Of a stretch of 64,000 nucleotides of DNA, positions 27,136 through 45,034 are shown piece by piece. The notes beneath the pieces were generated by a model that was not told the origin of the DNA, made no database searches, and saw only the letters and a list, made by a program, of their open reading frames with translations. Every line of letters begins with the position of its first letter. Positions within the stretch are counted from its first letter, which is position 1. The translations under genes were made by a program, and so were the position numbers. Origin of the DNA: an uncultured Gemmatimonadales bacterium (lineage in GTDB: Bacteria > Gemmatimonadota > Gemmatimonadetes > Gemmatimonadales > GWC2-71-9); the NCBI GenBank assembly GCA_963821525.1, contig CAWGED010000012.1:160001-224000 (forward strand). Direction: 5' to 3'.

Positions 27136-28528
27136 ATGGAACCCACCTACCAATTCGACCTCGTGTGCATCGGCAGCGGGCCGGCCGGCCAGCGGGCCGC
27201 CGTTCAGGCCGCCAAGCTGGGCAGCCGAGTCGCGATCGTCGAGAAATGCCGCTCGGTAGGCGGAGTTTGTCTCGATACCGGCACGATCCCCAGCAAGACG
27301 ATCCGCGAGGCGGTCCTATCCTTCTCGGGCAATGGTGCTGTGCTGGGCCGCCGAGGGATTCAAACGCCGCCCGACGCCGATCATCTGCTGGAACGGGTGG
27401 CGCACGTCGTGAGCCAGGAGGCGGCGGTGATCGAACACCAGCTCCGCCGCAACGGGGTGGAAGTCATCGTAGGCCACGCCTCTTTCCTGGACCCTCACAC
27501 GCTTGTGGTGCGCGCGGGAGACAGCTGGAGGGAGATAACGGCGAAGAACATTCTCATCGCCGTGGGGACCGTTCCGGCTCCCTCCCTCGGAATGGCAGCC
27601 GACGGGGTATCGATCGTCACCAGCGACGACATCGTCCGGCTGCCCCGCATCCCCAAGACCCTCACTGTGGTGGGCGCCGGAGTCATCGGCACCGAATACG
27701 CCTCGATCTTCGCGGCGCTCGGCGTGGGGGTGACGCTGGTCGACAAGCGCCGTCGTCCGCTGGAATTTCTGGATGAGGAGATCGTGGACGAGTTGCTGCA
27801 TCAGCTCCGGCGGCGCAACCTCATCTTTCGCCCTGGGGAAACGGTGGACCGGCTGGATATCTCCGAGGACGAACCGAAGCGAGTGGTGCATCCACCTGGA
27901 ATCGGGGAAGCGCATCGTTTCCGACATGGCGCTGTTCTCGGTCGGACGGATGGGTGCCACCGCTCAGCTCGACCTGAATTTGGCCGGCCTCAAAGCGGAT
28001 GAACGAGGGCGGCTGCAGGTGGACGACCAGTTCCGCACCGTGGTCCCGCACATCTACGCCGCAGGCGACGTGATCGGCCACCCGAGCCTCGCCGCGACGT
28101 CGAGCGAGCAGGGCCGGCTCGCCGCCTGCTACGCGCTGGGCAACCCGGTCTCAAAGATGCGGCAGCACTTCCCGATCGGGATCTACTCCATTCCGGAAAT
28201 CTCGATGGTGGGTGAAGCGGAACACGAGTTGACCAGCCAGAAGATTCCCTACGAGGTTGGGATCGCCCGGTACCGGGAGATCGCGAGAGGGCAGATCCTG
28301 GGAGACGACAGCGGCTTCTTCAAGATGCTGTTCCACCGGGAAGACCGCCGTCTCCTCGGCGTGCACATCATCGGAACCGGGGCAACGGAACTCCTGCACA
28401 TCGGCCAGACCGTGCTCGCCCTGGGAGCCGGGCTCGACTACTTCATGGAAACGGTGTTCAACTACCCCACGCTCGCCGAGTGTTACAAGGTGGCGGCGCT
28501 GAATGCGGCGAATAAGTTGGCGGTGTGA
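27136..28528 (+). CDS. sthA: Soluble (Si-specific) pyridine nucleotide transhydrogenase; apparent frameshift ~27885
   Basis: IGSGPAG, GGVCLDTGTIPSKT (CxxxxT, no redox disulfide), GAGVIG, GIYSIPEIS, VFNYPTLAECYKVAALN. Confidence 0.9.
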
Positions 28529-28616: not shown

Positions 28617-31198
28617 TCACGACTGCCCCGACAACTTCTCCAACGCCTCCCCCAGATCCGGAACTTCCGTCAGCACCGGCGCCACCGGGTCGTGACCCAG
28701 CTTCTGCATCCGCTCGATGGCCGTCCGGATAGTGAACTTCGTGGGATCGAGCTTGTTGTTGACCTCCTTCCACTCCAGCGGCATGGAGACCGTCGCCCCC
28801 GGCAAGGGCCGAACCGCGTAGGGCGCCACGATCAGCTGCCCGTGACGGTTCTGCATGTAGTCGAGATAGACCTTGGTCCCTCGGCTCCGGATGTGCCGGA
28901 TGATGGTGGTGATGTCTCCCAGCTCACGCATCACGACTCGCGCGAGCAATTCCCCGAGCCCTCGAGACATCTCCCAGGTGAGCTGCTTACCCAGGGGCAC
29001 CATCACGTGCAGGCCGGTCTTTCCGGTCGTCTTCACGTAGTTGGGCAAGCCCGCCGCTTCACACCGCTCATGTAAGAGCCGAGCGACCTTGATCACATCG
29101 CTGAAGGGGGCCTCCTTGGGGTCGAGATCCATGACACACCAGTCAGGACGCTCCAGCGAGCCCGCGCTGCTGAGCCAGAGATGCAGCGGGATCGCCCCCA
29201 TGTTCGCGATATAGAGCAGAGAATCGAGATCATCGCACACGAAATACTTGATGTCCCGCCCGGTATCTTCGCTCCAGATCGGAACCGTCCGAATCCAATC
29301 CGGTATGAAGTCTGGCGCATCCTTCTGATAGAACGACTTTCCCTCGATCCCGTCTGGAAAGCGGGTGAGCACGACCGGCCTGTCGCGCAGATAAGGGAGC
29401 AGCCAGGGCGAGACTCCGCGGTAGTACTCGATTAGATCGCCCTTGGTGTAACCCTCGGCCGGCCAGAAGACTTTCTTCAGGTTGGTGAGTTGCAGGGGGA
29501 CAGAGCGGCGGCTCGGCGGCTCGGCGGCACGGCTCGGCGGCTCGGCGGCAGCGCGGCTCGGCGGCTCGGCTTTGGCCTTCCGACCTTTCTTCGGTTCGTC
29601 ATTCGATAATTCCGCCATTCCGCCATTCCGCCATTTGGCGAGTTCCGATGCACTCCTCGGGTTTCTTATCGTCGCGCCAGCGGAGGAACACCGGGTGACG
29701 CAGCAGGCCTTCATCGGTCCACTCGGTGAAGCGCACCTCACAGACCAATTCCGGTTCAACCCAGGTTGAGTCCTTCTTCGCCTCCGTGGGCACCTTCTCG
29801 CAGGGCGGCGTCTTTCGCTTCTTCTGCTCCAGGTGCTCCCGAATTCCGGTGAGATCCTTGTCGGTGAGCCCGCTGCCCGCGCGACCGGAATAGGTCAGCG
29901 CTCCGTCCACATACTGCGCGAGATGGAGCGCCCCCAGCCCCGCGCGCGATCCCTTGGGAGCGGTGAAGCCGACCACGACGAAATCGTCGCTCTTGGCCGC
30001 ACGAAGCTTGAGCCAGTTTCCCGAGCGGCCACCTTTGTAGGGGGCATCGGCCTTCTTTGCGACAAGACCCTCCAGCCCCATGCGTTCGGCCTCGGCGAAA
30101 GCCCGCTCCCCTTCCCGCTCGACGTGGTCGACGTAGCGGATGGCGCCGACCTCGGGGACGACCTGTTTCAGGATTTCCTTTCTTGCCTCCAGCGGCAGCG
30201 GGCGCAGGTCGTAGGGACCAAAGGCGAGAAGATCGAAGACGAAGTAGACCACCGGTTGCTCGATCGCCGCGCGCTGCACCTCGAGCGGGCGCCGGAGCCT
30301 GCCCCGTTGCTGCAATCCCTGAAAACTCGGCCGTCCGGTCGGATCCAGCGCCACCACCTCGCCGTCAAAGATCAGCGAATCGAACGGCATCGCCGCTACA
30401 GACTTCGCGATCTCGGGAAAGGTGACGGTAGCGTCGTTGTGATTGCGGGTGAGGAGAACAACCTGCCCCTTCCGCCGTTCGGCAAGGAGCCGGTATCCGT
30501 CGAGCTTAAGCTCGAACAGCCAGCCGTCGCGGGTGAACGGCTTCTCGGCAACTTCCGCCAGCATCAAGTCAACTTTGTCCGCCGTGATCTCCCGCTTGAG
30601 CGCCTTCACCCGCTCGAGAGCCTTCAGCACGGGCGCCGCCAGATCCGTCCTTGCCTTCATGTCTTCGACGGTGACGCCGGAAAGCACGGAGCCCTCGGGC
30701 ACTTCGCGCGCCACCGGGAGTTACGTACGCATCCCGTTCCTTGATCAGCAACCATTCCTTTTCGCCCTTCTTCAGCTTCACGAGAGTCCACATTCCGTGC
30801 AGCTTGTGGCCATCGAGGCGGAACAGGAGCTTCCCCTTCGCCAGGCCCTCGTTGGGGTCACCGACGGGAGTCCAGCTACCCCGGTCCCACACGATCACCG
30901 CTCCAGCGCCGTAGTTGCCCTCGGGAATCATCCCTTCGAAGTCCCCGTACTCCACCGGGTGATCCTCGACGTGCACCGCCAGGCGCTTGTCGTTCGGATC
31001 GTAGGACGGACCCTTGGGCACGGCCCAGGAGCGGAGGACCCCATCCATTTCGAGCCGAAGATCGAAGTGAAGCCGACGGGCGGCGTGTTTGTGCACGACG
31101 AACAGGTGCCCGCCACCCGGGGCAACGGATCCGCCCGGCTCCGGGGTGGCCTCGAGACGTCGCTTGGCCCGATAGGATGAGAGCGGATGCTCAGGCAT
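28617..31198 (-). CDS. ligD: NHEJ DNA ligase D (phosphoesterase-ligase-polymerase); apparent frameshifts ~30720 and ~29620
   Basis: PE: HKHAARRLHFDLRLE, SWAVPKG, VEDHP; LIG: ELKLDGYR, EGLVAK, WLK, LRHPVF; POL: TKGDLIEYY, RFPDG, DLDP, KTTGKTGLH, YLDY..N. Confidence 0.93.
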
Positions 31199-31328
31199 GG
31201 TCGGAAAAAGACAGGTAATCGGGGGAAAGGTAAAGAGGGCGGGAAGGCTCACGTCTCACGTCACCTCCGACTTGCAGTCTTACAAGTTCCAATCCTATTG
31301 TAAACTTTCCTCCGTCCGTCTGGGAAAT

Positions 31329-32204
31329 ATGGCTGCACGTACCATGGGTTCCGCGACAATCTCCTTCGGGCTCGTTTCCGTGCCCGTCGTCATGTACTCC
31401 TCGAGCGAGTCCGCGGCGAGCGTCTCGTTCAACATGCTGCACAAGAGCTGCGGGACCCGGCTCAAGCAGCAGTATATCTGCCCCAAGGACAACGTGGTGG
31501 TCGAGAAGGACGAGGTCGCCAAGGGGTACGAGTTCTCCAAGGGTCAGTACGTCTTGTTCTCCCCCGAAGAACTGAAGGCCCTCGACGAGAAGGCCACCAA
31601 CACCATCGACATTTCGGAGTTCGTGCCACTGGCGAAGGTGGACCGGATCTACCTCGAGAAGGCCTACTACCTGGGGCCCGACAAGGGTGGTGAACGCGCC
31701 TACCGGCTGTTGCTCGAGGCCCTGAGGGTGAGCGGCCGGGCGGCAGTGGGGCAGTATTCCGCCCGCGGGAAGCAGAACCTGATCCTGGTGCGTCCCCTGG
31801 AGGGAGCGCTGGTTCTGGAACAGCTGCACTATGCCGATGAGCTGCGCCCGGTGAGCGAGGTGCCGATCCCCGACACCCAGGTGAAGGACGCGGAGTTGCA
31901 GCTGGCCAAGCAATTGATCGACCAGTCCGCCACCGACGAGTTCAAGCCGGCCCAGTATCACGACACGGTGAAAGACCGGGTCCTGGAGGCGATTCAAGCC
32001 AAGGTGGATGGCCAGGAGATCGTGGCCGACGAGCCGCAGGCCCAGGAGACCAAGATCATCGACCTGATGGAAGCGCTGAAGGCGAGCCTCTCCAAGTCGG
32101 GCAAGGCCCCCGCCGGGAAGGCGCCGGCGATGAAGGTCGTCAAGGGCGGCAAGGCCGCGAAGTCGGGAGGGGAGAAGAGGGTGAAGAAGGCCGCGAGGGG
32201 ATAG
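31329..32204 (+). CDS. ku: NHEJ DNA end-binding protein Ku
   Basis: TISFGLVSVPV, KGYE, IDISEFV, YYLGPD, AYRLL..AL, IDLMEALKASL, Lys/Ala-rich basic tail; divergent from ligD. Confidence 0.96.
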   Translation: MAARTMGSATISFGLVSVPVVMYSSSESAASVSFNMLHKSCGTRLKQQYICPKDNVVVEKDEVAKGYEFSKGQYVLFSPEELKALDEKATNTIDISEFVPLAKVDRIYLEKAYYLGPDKGGERAYRLLLEALRVSGRAAVGQYSARGKQNLILVRPLEGALVLEQLHYADELRPVSEVPIPDTQVKDAELQLAKQLIDQSATDEFKPAQYHDTVKDRVLEAIQAKVDGQEIVADEPQAQETKIIDLMEALKASLSKSGKAPAGKAPAMKVVKGGKAAKSGGEKRVKKAARG

Positions 32205-32293: not shown

Positions 32294-33121
32294 ATGAAAT
32301 CCTACAGCACAGCCGACGTTGCCCGCCTGATCGCACTCACGCCCCCGCAGGTTCGGGCGTACGCTCGGGCGGGCTTTCTGCGTCCGGCCCGGGGTCCGCG
32401 TAACACCTACCGGTTCTCCTTCCAGGATCTCGTGCTGCTCCGTGCCGCCAAGGCGCTACGCGATGGACACGTCCCGGGCCGCCGCATTCGTCGGGCGCTC
32501 CGTGGGCTGGCCCAGACCCTCCCGGCCGGTCGAGCGCTGAGCGAGATGCGGATCACTGCCGATGGGAACCGCGTGGTGGTGCGGGACAACGGCTGGATCT
32601 GGCAGCCGGATTCCGGCCAGATGCTGTTCGACCTCAGGGTCGGCAACCTGGCCCGGAAGGCTGCTCCGATCGCGCGGCGCCATGCGCGTCATGCGCGAGC
32701 TCGGGAGGAGACGCTCTCGGCGGACGACTGGTTCGGTCTCGGTGAGGAACTCGAGGCGGTCGAGCCCAGCGATGCGGAGGATGCGTATCGCCGTGCGCTG
32801 GCGCTCGACCCGCGGAACGCCGACGCGCACGTCAACCTCGGCCGGCTGCTCCAGGAGCGAGGGCGGGTGGAAGAAGCCGTTCTCCAGTATGAGGAAGCGC
32901 TTCGGCTCTCCCCCAAGCACGCACCCGCCGCCTTTAACCTCGGCACCGCCCTCGAAGATCTGAAGCGCACCAATGCCGCGATCGCAGCCTACCGCCGGGC
33001 AGTCGCACTGGACGAACAGCTCGCGGACGCCCACTACAACTTGTCGCGGCTCTACGAGAAAATAGGACAGCGTCAGGCAGCACTGCGGCATCTGAGCGCG
33101 TACCGGGACCTGGTTCGCTGA
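32294..33121 (+). CDS. MerR-like HTH + TPR protein
   Basis: YSTADVARLI...VRAYARAGFL..YRFSFQDL (MerR-like wHTH); 3-4 TPRs (ADAHVNLGRLL, APAAFNLG, ADAHYNL). Confidence 0.85.
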   Translation: MKSYSTADVARLIALTPPQVRAYARAGFLRPARGPRNTYRFSFQDLVLLRAAKALRDGHVPGRRIRRALRGLAQTLPAGRALSEMRITADGNRVVVRDNGWIWQPDSGQMLFDLRVGNLARKAAPIARRHARHARAREETLSADDWFGLGEELEAVEPSDAEDAYRRALALDPRNADAHVNLGRLLQERGRVEEAVLQYEEALRLSPKHAPAAFNLGTALEDLKRTNAAIAAYRRAVALDEQLADAHYNLSRLYEKIGQRQAALRHLSAYRDLVR

Positions 33122-33133
33122 CTGGAGGGGACG

Positions 33134-33835
33134 GTGCGGATTCTGTCGGGGACCAGCGGATGGTCGTTCAAGGAATGGAAGGGCAGCTTCTATCCGGCCG
33201 ACCTGCCGGCGGACCGCTACCTCGCCTATTACGCCGAGCGTTTCGGCACCGTCGAGGTGAACAACACGTTCTATCGGATGCCCAAGGAGAGCGTCCTGCT
33301 CGAGTGGGCCGCTCAGGTGCCGCCGCAATTTCGATTCGCCGTCAAGGCATCCCAGCGCATCACCCACTATTCCCGCCTCAAGGACGTGGCGGACAACCTC
33401 GCCTACTTCCTCCGCATCACGAACTCGCTGGGCGAGGCGCGGGGGCCGTCTCTCTTCCAGCTGCCTCCCAACCTGAAGAAAGATCTCCCGCTTCTGGTGG
33501 ACTTCCTCGCCCAGCTGCCGCCGCGCTGGCGCTCGACTGTCGAGTTCCGGCATCCGACCTGGCTCGCGGACGATGTGTACGATGCTTTACGAGAAAAGGA
33601 TGTTGCGCTCTGTGTGGCGGACCAGGATGATTTCTCGGTGCCGCCCATTGCGACGGCTTCGTGGGGTTATCTCAGGCTGCACCGGCTGACCTATGATGAG
33701 GCGGCTTTGGCGCGGTGGGCGGAGACGGTGCAGAAACAGCCGTGGGAGGAGTGCTACGTCTACTTCAAGCACGACGAGACCGAGGGCAGCGGCCCCGAGG
33801 CGGCGACCGCGTTTACCCGGTTAGTTCAGACCTAG
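33134..33835 (+). CDS. DUF72 (YecE-like) family protein
   Basis: GTSGW, FYP, VEVNNTFYRMP, KASQRITH, LFQLPP, EFRH, YLRLH; GGAGG RBS. Confidence 0.92.
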   Translation: MRILSGTSGWSFKEWKGSFYPADLPADRYLAYYAERFGTVEVNNTFYRMPKESVLLEWAAQVPPQFRFAVKASQRITHYSRLKDVADNLAYFLRITNSLGEARGPSLFQLPPNLKKDLPLLVDFLAQLPPRWRSTVEFRHPTWLADDVYDALREKDVALCVADQDDFSVPPIATASWGYLRLHRLTYDEAALARWAETVQKQPWEECYVYFKHDETEGSGPEAATAFTRLVQT

Positions 33836-33896: not shown

Positions 33897-36831
33897 TTAC
33901 GTCCCACCCCTGACCCCACACTCCTCAGCCACCAGGTCCATCTCCTCCAGGAAGCGCATCCCCCCGGTGGGATTCTGATCCCGGCGATCGACCCTCGTGA
34001 GCACCAGCCGGTCCATGGCGCGGGTCATTCCCACGTAGAGCAGGCGTCTCGCTTCCTCTACTTCGCTGGGCTTCGTTTCACCGTTTCCAGTCTTGATCCC
34101 GGGCAGCTCTGAATCCTCGGCCCCGACGACATAGACCCGGGGGAATTCGAGGCCCTTGGTGGAATGCAGGGTGAGCAGGCTCACTCGGCCCCGATCCAGC
34201 TCCGGACCTCCGCGGGTGTTGGAGAGTGCGACCCTATCCAGAAAATCGGAGAGTTGCTCCATAAGGGGTGTTGTCTCAGGAACGCTGTCGAGCAGGCGAC
34301 GGAGCCGGGCCATGGCAGCCGGATAGCGCTCGTCCGCGGTCCGCTCCTTCCGCAGTCTCTCCATGAGGATTCTGCCGCCTAACCGTTCGATCAGCTCCTC
34401 GCGCGCTGGCGCGTTCTCCCCGCCTGGGCGAGCCCGCTCCGCCTCATATGATTCGAGCGCCTTGGAGTAGCGGCCCAGGGCGAAGAGCTTGCCCAGATCG
34501 AAAAAGAGCCTTGCCTCGCTCTTCTCTCCGGGATTGCTGAGCGCCAGTGCGACGGCGAGGTGATCGATCGCGGAGACGAGGCTCGTCTTTCTGGCCCGAG
34601 CGAGCTTCTGGGTTTCGAGCTTGAGGAAGACCCCGGCCAGGGTGCGGGCGTCATCGAGCGCATGATGCTCCCGTCCCGGTCTCGATCCCGAAGCTGTGGG
34701 CCAGATTCGCCAGTGCCCGGCTGCCCGGGTGAAGCATCCGTGCGAGAGGCAGAGTGTCGAGCGCGAGGAAGTCATTCCCTGCAGGATGGTCCTTCGCCAG
34801 CCGGCGCAGTACGGGGAAGTCGAACCCGTGTCCGTTGTGAGCGACCAGCAGATCGTCTGCGGCAAAGGCACGGAACTCGGTCCATACCGATGCAAAGTCC
34901 GGAGCGCCTGCGAGGGCCTCATCGGTGTAGCCGTGAATCGCGACGGAACGGGGGCTCACCGGCTGGGTTGGCTTGACCAACCGCTGGAAATCCTCGACGA
35001 CCACCCCGTCCCGTACCCGGACCGCTCCCAACTCCACCACGTCACAGCCATCCGCGTCGTTGTCCGTGGTCTCGACGTCCACCGAGACGAAATCGCGGAA
35101 CGCGTCTCCCCCCGACTCGGCCGCGACCACCTGCAGGGCCTTGAAGAGCTCCAGGCAACGAGTCGCCGGATCTCCCCCGGATTCGAGCACCACGTCTTCC
35201 GGCCGCGGTTTCGCCTCCGGCCCCTGATACTCCACCATGGTCACCCCGGCTTCCCGAAGAAGGCCGGCCAGCCCCAGCTCGGCGCCGCCCATCCGAGGGA
35301 GCCAGGCAGTCCCACGGCCATAGCGGATCCGAGCGAGGCGCTGTGCCAATTCGGTCGCCGCCGGGTGGCCGGCGGGATCGGTGATCTCCTCCGCGTGCTC
35401 TTCGAGAATGGTCCGGTACTCACCGACCCGTTGGGAGAGCAGCTCTCCGATCAGGCCGGCGAGATCGTCATGTCGCTCGGCGAAGACCGGGAGGTTGCCG
35501 AGGACGTAAAGGCAGCGCCGTATCTTGCGCCCGTCCTCGTCCTTGTGGGGTAACTGCCGGCCAAGCTGCCGAAGCCACTCCACGAACTCGGTGCGCTTCT
35601 GCTCCGCGTCGGCTCTGAGCGTGTCATACAGGGCCTGGGGCAACACGACTTTAATGAACTGTTCTTCCAGAATCGGATCGCCGGGGCGTTCGATGACCCG
35701 CAACGCCGCGATCAGATACTTGACCACCTTCACGTCCGCCAAGGCCCTTCCCTCGGCGAGCTGGCAGGGTATTCCCGCTTCGACCAGGCGCGCCTCCAGC
35801 GCTTCGCCGATCGAGTGCTTGCGGTAGAGCAGCGCGAAATCACCCCATGCCAGCGTGTTCTCGTCCCGATCCTGCACCAGATCGGCGACCAGCCAGTCGG
35901 CTTCCGCTTTCTCATCGGGGAAATGGCGGACCAGTACCGGCCAGCGCGACTCGCGAGTCGCGCTCAGTTCCTTCTCATGCAGCCTGGGATTATGAGCGAC
36001 GAGCCGCCGTGCCGTAGTGAAGATTTCCCGCGTACAACGCCGGTTCTCATTCAGAACGATGGGGTCTGCTGTGATCTTGTAGTCGTTCAGAAAGCGACGT
36101 AGAACTCTGGGATCGGCTCCGGTCCAGGAGAAGATTGACTGCTCGTCGTCTCCCACCATGAAAATGTTGCGGTGATCCCGAGCCAGTCGATTGAGAATCG
36201 CGTACTGGAACGGGTTCAGATCCTGGGCTTCGTCGACCAGGACATAGGACCACCGCGCCGCGATTTCAGCCGCGACGTCCGCCCGGGTGCGGATCAGCTG
36301 CTCGGCTCGGACCACCAGATCATCGAAGTCCAACAGCCCTCGCGCCTCGAGAATCTCCTGATACCGCTGGAAGAGTTTCGCGGTGTAGTCACCGAGGGGC
36401 TCGCCGAGGATTTTGTGCTGACTGAAGTACTTGAGGGGCCAGGAGGCTGGGTAGCGGTGACCGGCGCGGCGCAGCACCTGAGCCTGATACTCCTCGTCGG
36501 CAATTCCAAAACCCTGGGTCAGCCCGATCGCGGAGCCGTACTGCCTGAGCAGCTGCACGCACAGAGCGTGAATCGTCGAGCGGGTGACCTGATCCGCCGC
36601 GAGTCCCAGTGAGCCGCGCAACCGGTGGGCGATCTCTCCCGCGGCCTTATTGGTGAAGGTGACCGCGACGATTCGTTCCGGAGCGACTTCCAGCCGCCCG
36701 ATCAGGTAGCGAATCCGCTCGATCAGGCAGAAGGTCTTCCCTGCCCCCGGTCCGGCCAGAACCAGCAGCGGGCCGAGCGGGGCCTCGATGGCCTGGCGCT
36801 GACGAGCGGTTGGAACGGGAGGAGAGATCAT
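33897..36831 (-). CDS. UvrD/Rep SF1A helicase with an inserted DEDDh 3'-5' exonuclease domain; apparent frameshift ~34665
   Basis: GPGAGKT, TFTNKAA, DEAQD, VGDDEQSIF, TLHSTKGLEF, RRLLYVGMTRA; exonuclease DVETT, HNGHGFD, HHALDDA. Confidence 0.9.
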
Positions 36832-40580: not shown

Positions 40581-43500
40581 ATGTCCCTCTCTGCCTTTCA
40601 TCCCGCCGTTGCCCGCTGGTTCCAGGAACGCCTCGGTGAGCCAACTCCTGTCCAAACAAAAGGATGGGAGGCCATTCGCCGGGGAGAGGACACTCTCATC
40701 ACGGCCCCGACGGGGTCAGGCAAGACGCTCGCCGCCTTTCTGATAGAGCTGGACGAGCTGCTGCGAGAATCGCTGAGCGGTGCCCTGCCGGACGAGACCC
40801 GGGTGGTCTACGTCTCTCCTTTGAAGGCGCTCTCCGCCGACATCCACAAGAACCTCGCCGAGCCTCGGCGCGAGATCCGCCGATTGGCGGAGGAGATGGG
40901 ACACGGCGAGGTCAGGATCACCGCCGCGGTTCGCAGCGGCGACACTCCTGCCTCGGAGCGGGCCTCGATGCTCCGGACCCCGCCCCACATTCTCGTAACC
41001 ACACCAGAGTCGCTCTACCTGCTTCTCACGGCGGAACGAAGCCGCAAGATGCTGAGCACGGTGCGGACGGTGATCGTTGACGAAATCCACGCCGTGGTCG
41101 ACTCGAGGAGAGGTGCCCATCTCGCGCTGAGCCTGGAGCGCCTGGAGCACGTCGCGGGGCGTAAGCTGCAACGGATCGGCCTGTCAGCCACGGTAAACCC
41201 CGTGGAGCTGGTAGCCGACTGGCTGGTCGGCTCGAATCGCCGAGCGACGATCATAAACGAGGGCCACCGCCGAGCCTTGGACCTCGCGCTCGAGCTGCCG
41301 GGTTCTCCCCTCGAAGCCGTCATGGCTGGGGAGGTATGGCTCGAGATCTACAACCGGCTCACCGACCTCATCAACCAGCATCAGACAACCATCGTCTTCG
41401 TCAACACACGAAAGCAGGCGGAGCGGGTAGCTCGCCACCTGGCCGAGCGGGTAGGAGAAGAGCTGGTGACTGCGCATCACGGCAGTCTGTCGAAGGAAAT
41501 CCGGCTCGCCGCGGAAGAGAAGCTCAAGACCGGTAAGCTCAAGGCACTGGTCGCCACTGCCTCATTGGAGCTGGGAATCGACATCGGGCACGTGGATCTG
41601 GTGTGCCAATTCGGCTCGCCGCATCGGATTGCTGCCTTCCTGCAGCGGGTCGGTAGGAGCGGACATACGGTGGCCGGCACGCCTAAGGGACGGCTTTTCC
41701 CACTGAGTCGCGACGATCTGGTTGAGTGTGCCGCCCTCCTGCGCTGGGCCCGCGCGGGAGTCCTGGATCGGCTCTGGGTCGTCGAGCACCCCGCGGATGT
41801 TCTCGCCCAACAGATCGTGGCGGAATCTGCGGCGGAAGACTGGGCCACCGATGATCTCTTCGACTTGGTGCGTCGAGCCTATCCCTACCGTGAGCTCAGT
41901 CGCCAGCAGTTCGACCAGATCGTCCAGATGGTCGCTCAGGGATTCACCACCCGGCGCGGTCGTCGCGGAGCGCTGGTTCACCATGACGGAGTGAATCAGA
42001 GACTTCGCGGCCGGCGCGGTGCCCGGATGCTGGCCCTGACTTCCGGCGGTGCCATTCCGGAAACGGCGGACTATCGGGTCTTGCTGGAGCCCGAGGGAAC
42101 CTTCATCGGCACCGTGAACGAGGACTTCGCCGTCGAGAGCATGGCGGGAGACGTCTTCCAGCTCGGGAATGCCTCGTGGCGCATGCTCCGAATCCAGGCT
42201 GGGACAGTTCGAGTGGAGGACGCACATGGCGAACCGCCCGGAATTCCCTTCTGGCTTGGTGAAGCACCGGCGAGGAGCGATGAGCTCTCTGTTGCGGTTG
42301 CCGAGTTGCGGCGCGAAGTCGGAGAAGCGCTTGGGAGATCGGGACGCTGCCGAGAAGTGGTTGGTGCAGGAGCTGTCGAGCAGGACGGACAAGTCGAGCG
42401 GGACGGACGGAGCACTGGAAACGCCGACTGGTCCGACCCGACCGCCTCTGTCCGACCCGACAACCTCCGCCGCATTCCAAATCATCCACTATCTCGCCGA
42501 CGCCCATCGGATCCTCGGCGTCCTGCCAACTCAGGATACCGTGATCGCCGAGCGGTTCTTCGACCAGGCCGGTGGAATGCAGCTCGTGATCCATGCGCCA
42601 TTCGGCAGCCGGATCAACAAAGCGTGGGGTCTGTCACTTCGCAAGCGATTCTGCCGCAGCTTCAATTTTGAGTTGCAGGCCGCTGCCACCGAGGACGGCA
42701 TCGTGCTCTCGCTGGGGCCGCAGCATTCATTCCCGCTCGAGAACGTCTTCGATTTCCTCCACCCGTCGTCGGTGCGCGAAGTGCTGGTCCAGGCCCTGCT
42801 GGATGCGCCTCTATTCGGCACGCGGTGGCGCTGGAATGGCAACATCTCCCTGGCGATCCCGCGCTATCGCGGCGGGAAGAAGGTTCCGCCCCAAATCCAG
42901 CGCATGGAGGCGGATGACCTGCTCGCCGCGGTGTTCCCCGACGCGGCGGCCTGCCTCGAGAATATCGCCGGCGATCGGGAAGTCCCCGATCACCCCCTCG
43001 CCTCACAGACCATCACCGATTGCCTTACTGAGGCGATGGATCTCGATGGTCTGATCAAGGTTCTCGAACGCCTTCGTGCCGGCGAGATCAACTGCGTTGC
43101 CCGAGACCTGCCGGAGCCTTCGCCTCTCAGCGCCGAGATCCTGAACGCTCGACCGTACGCCTTCCTCGACGATGCCCCGCTGGAAGAGAGGAGAACCCAG
43201 GCGGTCTATACCCGTCGCGCCTTCGAGCCGTCCTCGGCAGACGATCTCGGTGCTCTCGATCCTCAGGCGATCGAGAGAGTCCGGGAACAGGCATGGCCCG
43301 AGGCGGAGAACGCCGATGAGTTGCATGACGGGTTGCTCACTTCGGGGTTCATTCTGGAAAAAGAGGCGACGGACAGGGCGGGCGAGACGGACAGGGCGGA
43401 CGCGGCGGAGGAGCGAGCCCCTGACTGGAACGAGCTGTTCGATGAACTGGTCCGCGCGGGCCGGGCACAGCGAATCAGTATCGACTCCGCGCCTTCGGCG

Positions 43501-45034
43501 CTCTGGGTCGCAACCGAACGTCTAGCGCGAGATTCTAGGCCATCCACCCGTCGTCTCCGTCCCGTCCGCCCCGTCCGACCTGACCGTCCCGACCCGCGAA
43601 GAAGCCGATTCGCGAACTACTCCGCGGCCGCCTGGAGATCGTCGGACCCACCACCGCAGCCGAGCTGGCGAGCACGCTCGGTGTGGGCGAAGGAGATGCG
43701 GACCTCGCACTCGCCGCGCTGGAACGAGAGGGAGTCGTACTCCGCGGGCGGTTCACTCCGGGAGCCACGACTCTCGAGTGGTGCGACCGACGGCTGCTTG
43801 CGCGGATTCACCGCTATACCCTGGATCGCCTCCGGGCCGAGATCGAACCGGTCAGCGCCGCCGATTTTATGCGCTTCCTGTTCCGGTGGCAGCGGATAGA
43901 TCCGGAATATCGAGTCTCAGGCCTCGAGGGCCTGGCGAGCGTCCTGGAGCAGCTCGACGGCTTCGAGGTTCCGGCGAAGGCCTGGGAGCCCGACGTTCTG
44001 GCGGCGCGCATGCACACGAATACGATCCTGCGTTGCTCGACATGCTTTGCCTCACCGGCCGTATCGCCTGGGCTCGGCTTTCGGCTGGAGGCAATCCTGC
44101 GGCACGTCCTGCGAGCCGTCCCATTCGGTCAACGCCGGTGGCGACTCCCGCTTCGTCAGCACCTAGGCTCCTGGCTGGCGATCGCGCCAACGGCCGAAGC
44201 GCCGGCGCTTTCGTCCTACGCTCAGGATGTGCTCGCAGTGCTGAGTCGCCGCGGGGCATCGTTCTTCACCGACCTGACTGCGGGCTCCGGCCTTCTCGCC
44301 ACCCAGGTCGAACAGGCTTTGGCCGAGCTGGCCGCAGCAGGACTGGTCACCTCTGACAGCTTCACGGGACTTCGTGCCCTGCTTACTCCATCCGACCGTC
44401 GCAAGCCGCTGGTGACCCGTGCCGCCTCGACCGACGTGCGACGCCATAGAACGGTCAACTTCGGGATCGAGGGAGCAGGCCGCTGGAGCCTCCTTCACCC
44501 TGAATCCACCGGCCGAGCCGCCGAGCCGAGCCGCGCGAGCCGCCGAGATTGAGCTCCTCGCCCTCACCCTCCTCGCTCGCTACGGCGTGGTCTTCCGGAG
44601 ACTCCTCGCCCGGGAAAGCCTCACCGTGCCGTGGCGCGTGTTGCTTCAGGTCTATCGCAGGCTCGAGGCGCGGGGGGAAATTCGCGGGGGGCCGGTTCGT
44701 GGCCGGCATGCAGGGAGAGCAATTCGCGAGGCCGGAGGCGGTGACCCAGCTACGCGCGGTCCGCCGGGCCACAAAGGACGTTGAGCTGGTCGTGCTGTCG
44801 GCAGCGGACCCGCTGAATCTCACCGGCCTCGTCACACCCGGTGAACGGATCTCCGCGCTGGCGAGCAACCGTATCGCCTGGCGGAACGGAGTTCCGGTCG
44901 CGGCCCTCGAAGGCAACGAGGTTCGCTGGCTGCGCGACGACGTAAACCCGGAGGACCGGCTCGAGATCGAGCGAGCCCTGGCCCGCAAGCGGATCAGCCC
45001 CGCGTTAAGGGGCTATCTCGGCATGACAGGGTGA
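40581..45034 (+). CDS. lhr: Full-length Lhr ATP-dependent SF2 helicase with C-terminal domain; at least 5 apparent frameshifts
   Basis: [53 protein letters not shown]-terminal [33 protein letters not shown]. Confidence 0.9.

Follow-up and report, generated by a model that had tools for sequence, protein, structure and literature searches.

A winged-helix TPR protein encoded behind ku as a proposed Ku-tail-binding accessory factor of bacterial NHEJ

In bacteria, NHEJ is usually described as a system of two components, a Ku homodimer and LigD, as in B. subtilis, M. tuberculosis and S. meliloti, and the extended tail of Ku is usually regarded as a variable basic arm that binds DNA. The accessible portions of the published descriptions present this tail as variable and as binding either DNA or LigD, and in those portions no partner of the kind considered here is described (PMC4889933, PMC9638933, PMC6379672, PMC1920237). 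As far as these partial texts go, the extended tail binds DNA, limits threading and promotes bridging (PMC4889933, PMC9638933), the PAKKA-type repeats of M. smegmatis Ku are a DNA-binding feature (PMC3553676), and Sir2 is a participant in mycobacterial NHEJ (PMC3102665). The locus described here resembles these two-component systems in encoding both Ku (TIGR02772) and a PE-LIG-POL LigD, and its Ku likewise has a minimal C-terminal helix and a basic extended tail. It differs from them in that a conserved third gene follows ku, and in that a defined motif within the extended tail tracks this gene. A search of the literature found no description of the gene family, although neighbourhood tables in supplements could still mention the gene.

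The window, by which we mean the whole 64,000-nucleotide stretch of DNA that was analysed, is from an uncultured Gemmatimonadales bacterium and contains the following features:

28617..31198, minus strand: ligD (PE-LIG-POL), divergent from ku, in three open reading frames in the window
31272..31301, plus strand: likely ku promoter, sigma70-type, TTGCAG-N18-TATTGT, recognized by eye and from TTGCG-N17-TATAGT-like elements in relatives
31329..32204, plus strand: ku, 291 aa, matching TIGR02772 at 284.9 bits (cut-off 150), directly upstream of the wHTH-beta-TPR gene on the same strand
32115..32141, plus strand: segment GKAPAMKVV of the Ku extended tail, the predicted TPR ligand, from alignment columns, motif co-occurrence and the complex model of a relative
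32294..33121, plus strand: gene for the wHTH-beta-TPR protein, 275 aa, from the ORF call; proposed Ku-tail-binding NHEJ accessory factor
32303..32518, plus strand: MerR/GlnR-type winged HTH, residues 4-75, from Pfam MerR_1, fold matches and column counts
32546..32641, plus strand: small beta-domain, residues 85-116, from models and hhalign to Rv2018/VapB45-type antitoxins
32618..32635, plus strand: clamp-like hexamer QMLFDL, its first half being the return strand of a W-x-P-x-S-G-Q hairpin
32720..33115, plus strand: TPR domain, residues 143-274, pLDDT about 98, from the interface of a relative's complex model and conservation
33134..33835, plus strand: DUF72 gene, 12 bp downstream of the wHTH-beta-TPR gene, from Pfam
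33897..36831, minus strand: UvrD helicase with an inserted RNase_T/DEDD exonuclease domain, from Pfam

A first-pass annotation had described the open reading frame at 32294-33121 as encoding a MerR-type wHTH followed by TPRs and had placed it downstream of ku; the ORF call and Pfam agree with it on the former, and the gene does start 89 bp past the ku stop codon. The corresponding gaps in relatives are mostly between -4 and about 60 nt, and ku and the wHTH-beta-TPR gene likely form one operon. The closest records to the gene are Gemmatimonadales MAGs. In five of the six relatives checked, ligD is one open frame of 877-1039 residues, and the three-ORF split in the window is therefore probably due to assembly frameshifts. 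Similar splits are seen in an oxidoreductase gene (27136-28528), in the UvrD-exonuclease gene (33897-36831) and in Lhr (40581-44552). The DUF72 gene, present in 49 of the best 80 related loci, is a frequent but not an obligatory member of the cluster, and in L203, L207, L210, L215 and L275, where the TPR gene is absent, DUF72 comes directly after ku. The UvrD-exonuclease gene adjoins the ku cluster in 20 of the same 80 loci, and its product is a possible end-processing partner.

The linkage to ku extends well beyond this genome. When the best 80 of 308 GTDB stretches encoding relatives were fetched (some of them from the same genome), ku was found in 76, in 75 of them immediately ahead of the gene and in the same orientation; among the four loci that lack ku, two had less than 210 bp of upstream sequence and two came from one Acidobacteriota genome. 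The ku-linked GTDB loci span Gemmatimonadota, Acidobacteriota, Myxococcota, Planctomycetota and Gammaproteobacteria. Matches were also found in 41 plasmid records, all of them from Burkholderiales, and among 15 Burkholderiales loci inspected the gene was present in 14, each time with ku just before it. A phage collection searched for the gene family gave no match. In a sample of 201 Gemmatimonadota genomes, the gene was present in 39, Ku in 142 and both in 38, a tally that includes the unpublished genome G155 and from which two marginal hits were set aside. Most Ku-positive genomes of this phylum (all except 38 of the 142) do without the gene, which is therefore dispensable: it accompanies one Ku clade faithfully but optionally.

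Pfam assigns residues 4-71 of the protein to MerR_1 (E 2.9e-10) and residues 164-258 to TPR families, with no DUF433, and an AlphaFold2 model from a 105-sequence alignment (mean pLDDT 87.7) consists of a wHTH domain (residues 1-75), a small beta-domain with strands at 85-90, 93-98, 101-104 and 109-111, a long helix (116-136) and a TPR domain whose helices cover residues 143-274. In the N-terminal model, strands 101-104 and 109-111 form a hairpin. The wHTH domain is of the MerR type by Pfam and by its fold matches, which are RacA, TnrA and GlnR (Z 9.0-9.6, rmsd 1.6-2.2 Å over 67-78 residues); the wing is conserved at R33, G34, R36 and R40, the recognition helix being variable. The segment after it had been annotated as a short beta-rich linker. 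It is indeed beta-rich, but rather than a free linker it is the beta-domain of an Rv2018-type wHTH-beta module, as hhalign matched residues 1-125 to 26 Rv2018/VapB45-type antitoxins over 123 columns (Prob 98.2, E 6e-14) with SGQ in register. Judged by this alignment, the beta-domain is homologous to the middle domain of those antitoxins, although by itself it aligns weakly (Prob 5.5), and it is likely to be a dimerisation module.

The tandem TPRs present a conserved concave groove, as in peptide-binding TPR adaptors, which is lined with acidic residues and Asn (E154, N181, E188, N215, E221, D245 and N249); its Asn positions resemble the general TPR consensus, and the protein may resemble McdR/Rv1830. 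Many of the 5607 matches from a homologue search were generic TPRs, a cluster-representative search with the full-length protein gave mostly generic TPR proteins, and a first fold search returned generic TPRs only. The ESM Atlas contributed MerR-like clusters of 95-155 aa with scores of 0.89-0.92, to be taken as leads only, and a search for shorter forms mostly returned fragments.

Ku tails encoded beside the gene carry the motif E-[RK]-K-P-A-[KR]-R-A, with the consensus ERKPAKRA. From the phylum sample, 147 Ku loci were considered (11 further listed matches and G155 were left out), and setting aside 15 Ku without an anchor match and 18 with less than 47% identity left 38 linked and 76 unlinked Ku of the same clade. 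Three motif patterns, all picked after the tails had been seen, matched 26 of 38 linked against 3 of 76 unlinked, 30 of 38 against 4 of 76, and 30 of 38 against 3 of 76 tails, respectively. Shuffled tails gave, on average, 0.1-0.3 matches with the first and third patterns (for the third, 0.26 linked and 0.17 unlinked) and about 2 with the second. Linkage switches 18 times on a FastTree built from Ku cores without the tails; on it, ten independent pairs gave 5.1, 6.8 and 7.1 concordant pairs for the three patterns against 0-0.2 discordant (0.0 where concordance was 7.1), with median p values of 0.0625 for the strict pattern and 0.0156 for each of the other two. Tail length also co-varies with linkage, with a median of 35 in linked and 22 in unlinked Ku (p 0.0625 alone). 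The gene and the tail motif are thus retained together and lost together, and this co-evolution with Ku, along with the genetic linkage, is what would be expected of an NHEJ component.

The correspondence has exceptions in both directions. L203, L266 and L372 keep the motif although the gene was undetected, which counts against the rule, as does a subclade (L048, L051, L073, L077 and L019) in which the TPR gene is kept and the Ku motif is lost. In that subclade, which represents a single event, the TPR protein has E221D in all four members checked, and the residues after it are altered. A further case is L134 (G167:C50), where the last repeats of the TPR gene survive as a remnant between ku and DUF72 and the Ku protein keeps EKKPAKRA, which points to recent loss of the gene. 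The Ku of the window itself is degenerate, as its segment GKAPAMKVV fails the motif patterns.

For Acidobacteriota the pattern was fixed beforehand and applied to the 30 best loci minus the unpublished G427 and four loci without an anchor: the motif was found in 13 of 15 linked and in 2 of 10 unlinked Ku, only 3 of these 10 being of the same clade. One of the unlinked matches is from G507, in which ku and the gene are on different contigs. When linked tails of Myxococcota and Acidobacteriota were taken together, this same loose pattern matched 20 of 39 (shuffle mean 1.3) and a tighter one 6 of 39. For Burkholderiales, a still looser pattern chosen post hoc was matched by 7 of 14 tails (shuffle mean 0.28), one of the seven being from a plasmid from which the gene is absent. 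Outside Gemmatimonadota, then, the motif drifts. Six Acidobacteriota Ku of another clade (L359, L368, L369, L374, L382 and L384) have tails with K-[RK]-P-x-x-[RT], and several of the genomes with such tails hold distant wHTH-beta paralogs elsewhere; it may be that these constitute a second partner pair.

The first-pass annotation had also suggested complex modelling, which, for the pair from a relative, lends support to binding of the Ku tail but does not establish it. The TPR protein of L035, which is 62% identical to that of the window, was modelled with residues 252-286 of the L035 Ku from user alignments, and the pair scored 0.79 in all three runs, the best of three controls reaching 0.16; of 157 solved pairs 116 reach this mark, and of 215 mismatched pairs 2 do, a calibration that is only roughly valid for user alignments. 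The runs share at least 67% of contacts, the partner having a pLDDT of 50-55, and the confident interface comprises Ku residues 262 and 264-273, which correspond to the motif, and TPR residues 151-252. The motif was thus modelled as lying in the groove of this pair without its location having been supplied, with K265 on D245 and N249, A267 in a pocket formed by residues 184-219, and R269 on N181. The TPR groove is therefore predicted, on the model, to bind the basic motif in the Ku C-terminal tail. Of the nine polar TPR residues with at least 90% conservation, six fall in the modelled interface, and the window protein keeps them. Among 39 Ku-adjacent proteins, 33 have E188 and 34 have E221; in 24 distant paralogs, among the residues listed, E188 does not occur, position 188 being mostly R (18), and E221 occurs in 7, so that by residue counts these two glutamates are family-specific marks of Ku-adjacent proteins. 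It should be noted that the L035 pair may score well through likeness, because TPR-peptide complexes are common among solved structures, and that the window Ku has Ala at the best-resolved model contact (K265-D245), which counts against the Ku-tail reading.

Since the gene lies behind ku in several phyla, and its product has a predicted grip on a motif that is kept and lost with it, NHEJ likely has a third partner in these bacteria. The linkage and operon position, the way in which gene and motif are kept or lost together, and an acidic groove that is conserved carry the explanation that we favour and regard as moderately probable: the protein would be a Ku-tail-binding NHEJ accessory factor whose TPR groove takes the tail motif and whose winged helix likely holds duplex DNA, tethering Ku near a break. 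In this mechanism the groove would capture the middle of the Ku tail at the basic motif E-R-K-P-A-K-R-A, the winged helix would hold duplex DNA through its wing, independently of sequence, and the protein would dimerise via the beta-domain, so that one dimer could hold two Ku tails. The outcome would be that Ku is anchored near the break with its sliding limited, or that two ends are bridged before LigD acts. It is tempting to go further, although only tentatively, as a possibility that we rate below an even chance, and to propose that, in at least five phyla, bacteria have a third factor dedicated to NHEJ, in which a DNA-binding module of the antitoxin type is fused to TPRs and which reads a Ku-tail motif; that its dimer clamps two tails onto DNA and so bridges the ends; and that its QxxLDF segment may also dock on the sliding clamp. 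As part of the same joint reading, and with the same tentativeness, the dimer could be a bacterial counterpart of the eukaryotic synapsis factors recruited by Ku tails.

All of the evidence for Ku binding would fit equally well if the protein bound the Ku tail for another purpose, as a transcription regulator controlled by Ku or as a holder of Ku, which we consider unlikely. In the first case Ku binding would act as a switch on operator binding, much as TnrA and GlnR are switched by their partner proteins; in the second the protein, like its antitoxin relatives, would mask the basic Ku tail until breaks appear. GlnR, TnrA and RacA are the closest folds, the N-terminal module is common to type II antitoxins, and R21 is present in 34 of 39 Ku-adjacent proteins from Myxococcota and Acidobacteriota, all of which favours such a role. 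Several observations stand against it. Classical MerR-family activators act on target promoters with a spacer of 19-20 bp, but of 39 scorable promoters, all on the ku side, 31 have a 17-bp spacer and only two have one of 19-20 bp. No palindromic operator was found to be conserved upstream of ku, as the best dyad occurred in 6 of 56 dereplicated regions (of 76) and the shuffle maximum was also 6. Among 105 homologues, Q19, R21 and Y23 of the recognition helix are found in only 52, 57 and 20, in contrast to R33 of the wing in 104. The inverted repeat TTACAA-N12-TTGTAA, at 31280-31303 in the window, overlaps the ku promoter and was considered as a ku operator; it was rejected, being absent in the close relatives L032-L034. 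The earlier proposal of a damage-responsive regulator of ku/ligD thus finds no support, and the 17-bp spacer, the lack of a dyad above shuffles, the variable recognition helix and the conserved wing arginines together favour DNA binding that would be independent of sequence.

The element TTGCAG-N18-TATTGT, which a consensus promoter scan did not call, is from its sequence likely to be the ku promoter of the window. In the upstream regions of L032-L115, 25 of the 39 scorable promoters have only 6-14 nt between the end of the -10 element and the ku start codon, and this short distance suggests leaderless transcripts.

Relatives of the protein are also encoded away from ku. A second wHTH-beta-TPR subfamily (L291-L305, L344-L349 and L352-L355) lacks a ku within 1.5 kb; its recognition helix has a conserved R-x-R-Y-W and its groove is different, with R188, and from these residues it looks like a true transcription regulator. 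In Myxococcota there are TPR-less paralogs of 138-167 aa (L336-L343 and L354) that consist of the wHTH and beta-domain and contain SGQEW[IV]FEV; the two checked are both just upstream of a ParA/Soj-type ATPase. An HMM match beside ku in G197 turned out to be a VapB45-type antitoxin and was moved to the negatives. There, a VapB45/VapC45-like toxin-antitoxin pair directly follows ku on the opposite strand (L183:1173-2266, minus strand).

It was the hexamer QMLFDL, which does lie at 32618-32635, that had drawn attention to this protein as a DNA-binding TPR adaptor that might link NHEJ to the sliding clamp, DnaN (found at G000:C4; L001:1492-2607). The adaptor half of that proposal gains from the ku synteny, the co-evolution with the tail motif and the complex model, and the clamp half is weakened. 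A match to Q..[LF].[LF] alone is weak, as it arises by chance in about 14% of 275-aa stretches from this genome's likely genes, but an alignment of the homologues, as the first-pass annotation advised, showed conservation far beyond chance, with Q109 in 105 of 105, D113 in 101 of 105 and F or L at position 114 in 105 of 105. According to the accessible part of a recent preprint, the revised clamp consensus is Q-phi-x-[LM]-[FL] or Q-phi-x-[LM]-x-[FL], and a RecB motif that is buried still binds the clamp, with a KD of 2 uM as a peptide (bioRxiv 10.1101/2025.08.20.671105). The revised hexamer is matched by 75 of 105 homologues, its [LM]-x-[FL] ending is nearly absent from the antitoxin relatives (1 of 26), and residues 111-120 are poorly ordered in monomer models (pLDDT 49-53); these observations would suit a true beta-clamp motif through which the protein, holding Ku by its TPRs, bridges Ku to DnaN, so that NHEJ is coupled to collapsed forks or to DNA on which the clamp is loaded, a scheme that is compatible with Ku-tail binding and that we nevertheless judge improbable. 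The window's own QMLFDL misses the consensus twice, with M at phi (position 2) and F at position 4, and among 40 Ku-adjacent proteins from Myxococcota and Acidobacteriota only 10 fit it. The looser hexamer pattern, Q-x-x-[LMFIV]-x-[FL], matches all 105 homologues and is also present in 29 of 29 TPR paralogs that lack a ku within 1.5 kb; the genes identified next to these paralogs are metabolic. The SGQ is in register with the Rv2018-type antitoxins (Rv2018 itself, 5af3, reads SGQYVF), residues 109-111 form a hairpin strand, and the hydrophobic alternation at positions 4, 6 and 8 runs past the hexamer to V116 (in 90 of 105 homologues), as expected of a structural strand. We therefore read the QxxLDF segment, from its conservation and its relatives, as probably a structural strand inherited from an antitoxin-type fold; clamp binding by the protein is doubtful, and it is likelier to bind Ku than the sliding clamp.

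That an unrelated regulator travels with ku through shared operon history, the Ku motif being a generic basic DNA-binding repeat, is very improbable: paralogs of the same architecture do occur away from ku, Ku tails are of low complexity and rich in K, A, P and R, and the gene is dispensable, but the motif is repeatedly lost with the gene, is present in only 2 of 15 unlinked tails of at least 28 residues, is kept in G507 with the two genes on different contigs, and was put into the groove unprompted by the complex model.

If a Ku-tail-binding accessory factor is indeed what the gene encodes, the Ku tail would gain a specific protein-recruiting role and NHEJ a third core factor. The model makes predictions at the level of residues, setting K265, A267 and R269 of Ku against D245, N215/E221 and N181 of the TPR domain, and these can be addressed both with peptides and in soil Burkholderiales that can be cultured, Cupriavidus, Variovorax and Paraburkholderia among them; in such hosts they would also bear on genome editing with Ku-LigD.

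Among described proteins, the Rv2018/VapB45-type antitoxin (PDB 5af3; HTH_66 and DUF433) shares the wHTH followed by a beta-domain ending in SGQ, with a profile alignment over residues 1-125 (Prob 98.2) and a middling fold match over residues 1-116 (Z 6.3, rmsd 3.4 Å over 96 residues); it differs in that TPRs here replace DUF433, the flanking genes are ku and DUF72 with no adjacent PIN toxin, and the beta-domain alone aligns weakly (Prob 5.5). GlnR, TnrA and RacA (4r4e, 4r22 and 5i41) have the same wHTH fold (Z 9.0-9.6), whereas here a beta-domain and TPRs follow it, the recognition helix lacks conservation and the ku upstream regions yielded no operator. Proteins with beta-clamp motifs, such as Hda, Pol III alpha and RecB, are approached by the family consensus QLL[LM]DF, which fits the hexamer in 75 of 105 homologues, but here the motif is in an inherited hairpin, is common to paralogs away from ku and is off consensus in the window copy. 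The peptide-binding TPR grooves of O-GlcNAc transferase and of consensus TPRs, seen among the fold hits, are similar in being lined with Asn, and the groove here is likewise predicted to take an extended peptide. In eukaryotes, the tail of Ku80 recruits DNA-PKcs, which offers a parallel to recruitment via the Ku tail, although the protein showed no homology to eukaryotic NHEJ factors and we claim none. The accessible part of one paper states that no prokaryotic DNA-PKcs homologue has been identified (PMC4889933). Against the known background of two-component NHEJ by Ku and LigD, what is new here is a predicted interface on the Ku tail that is specific and testable.
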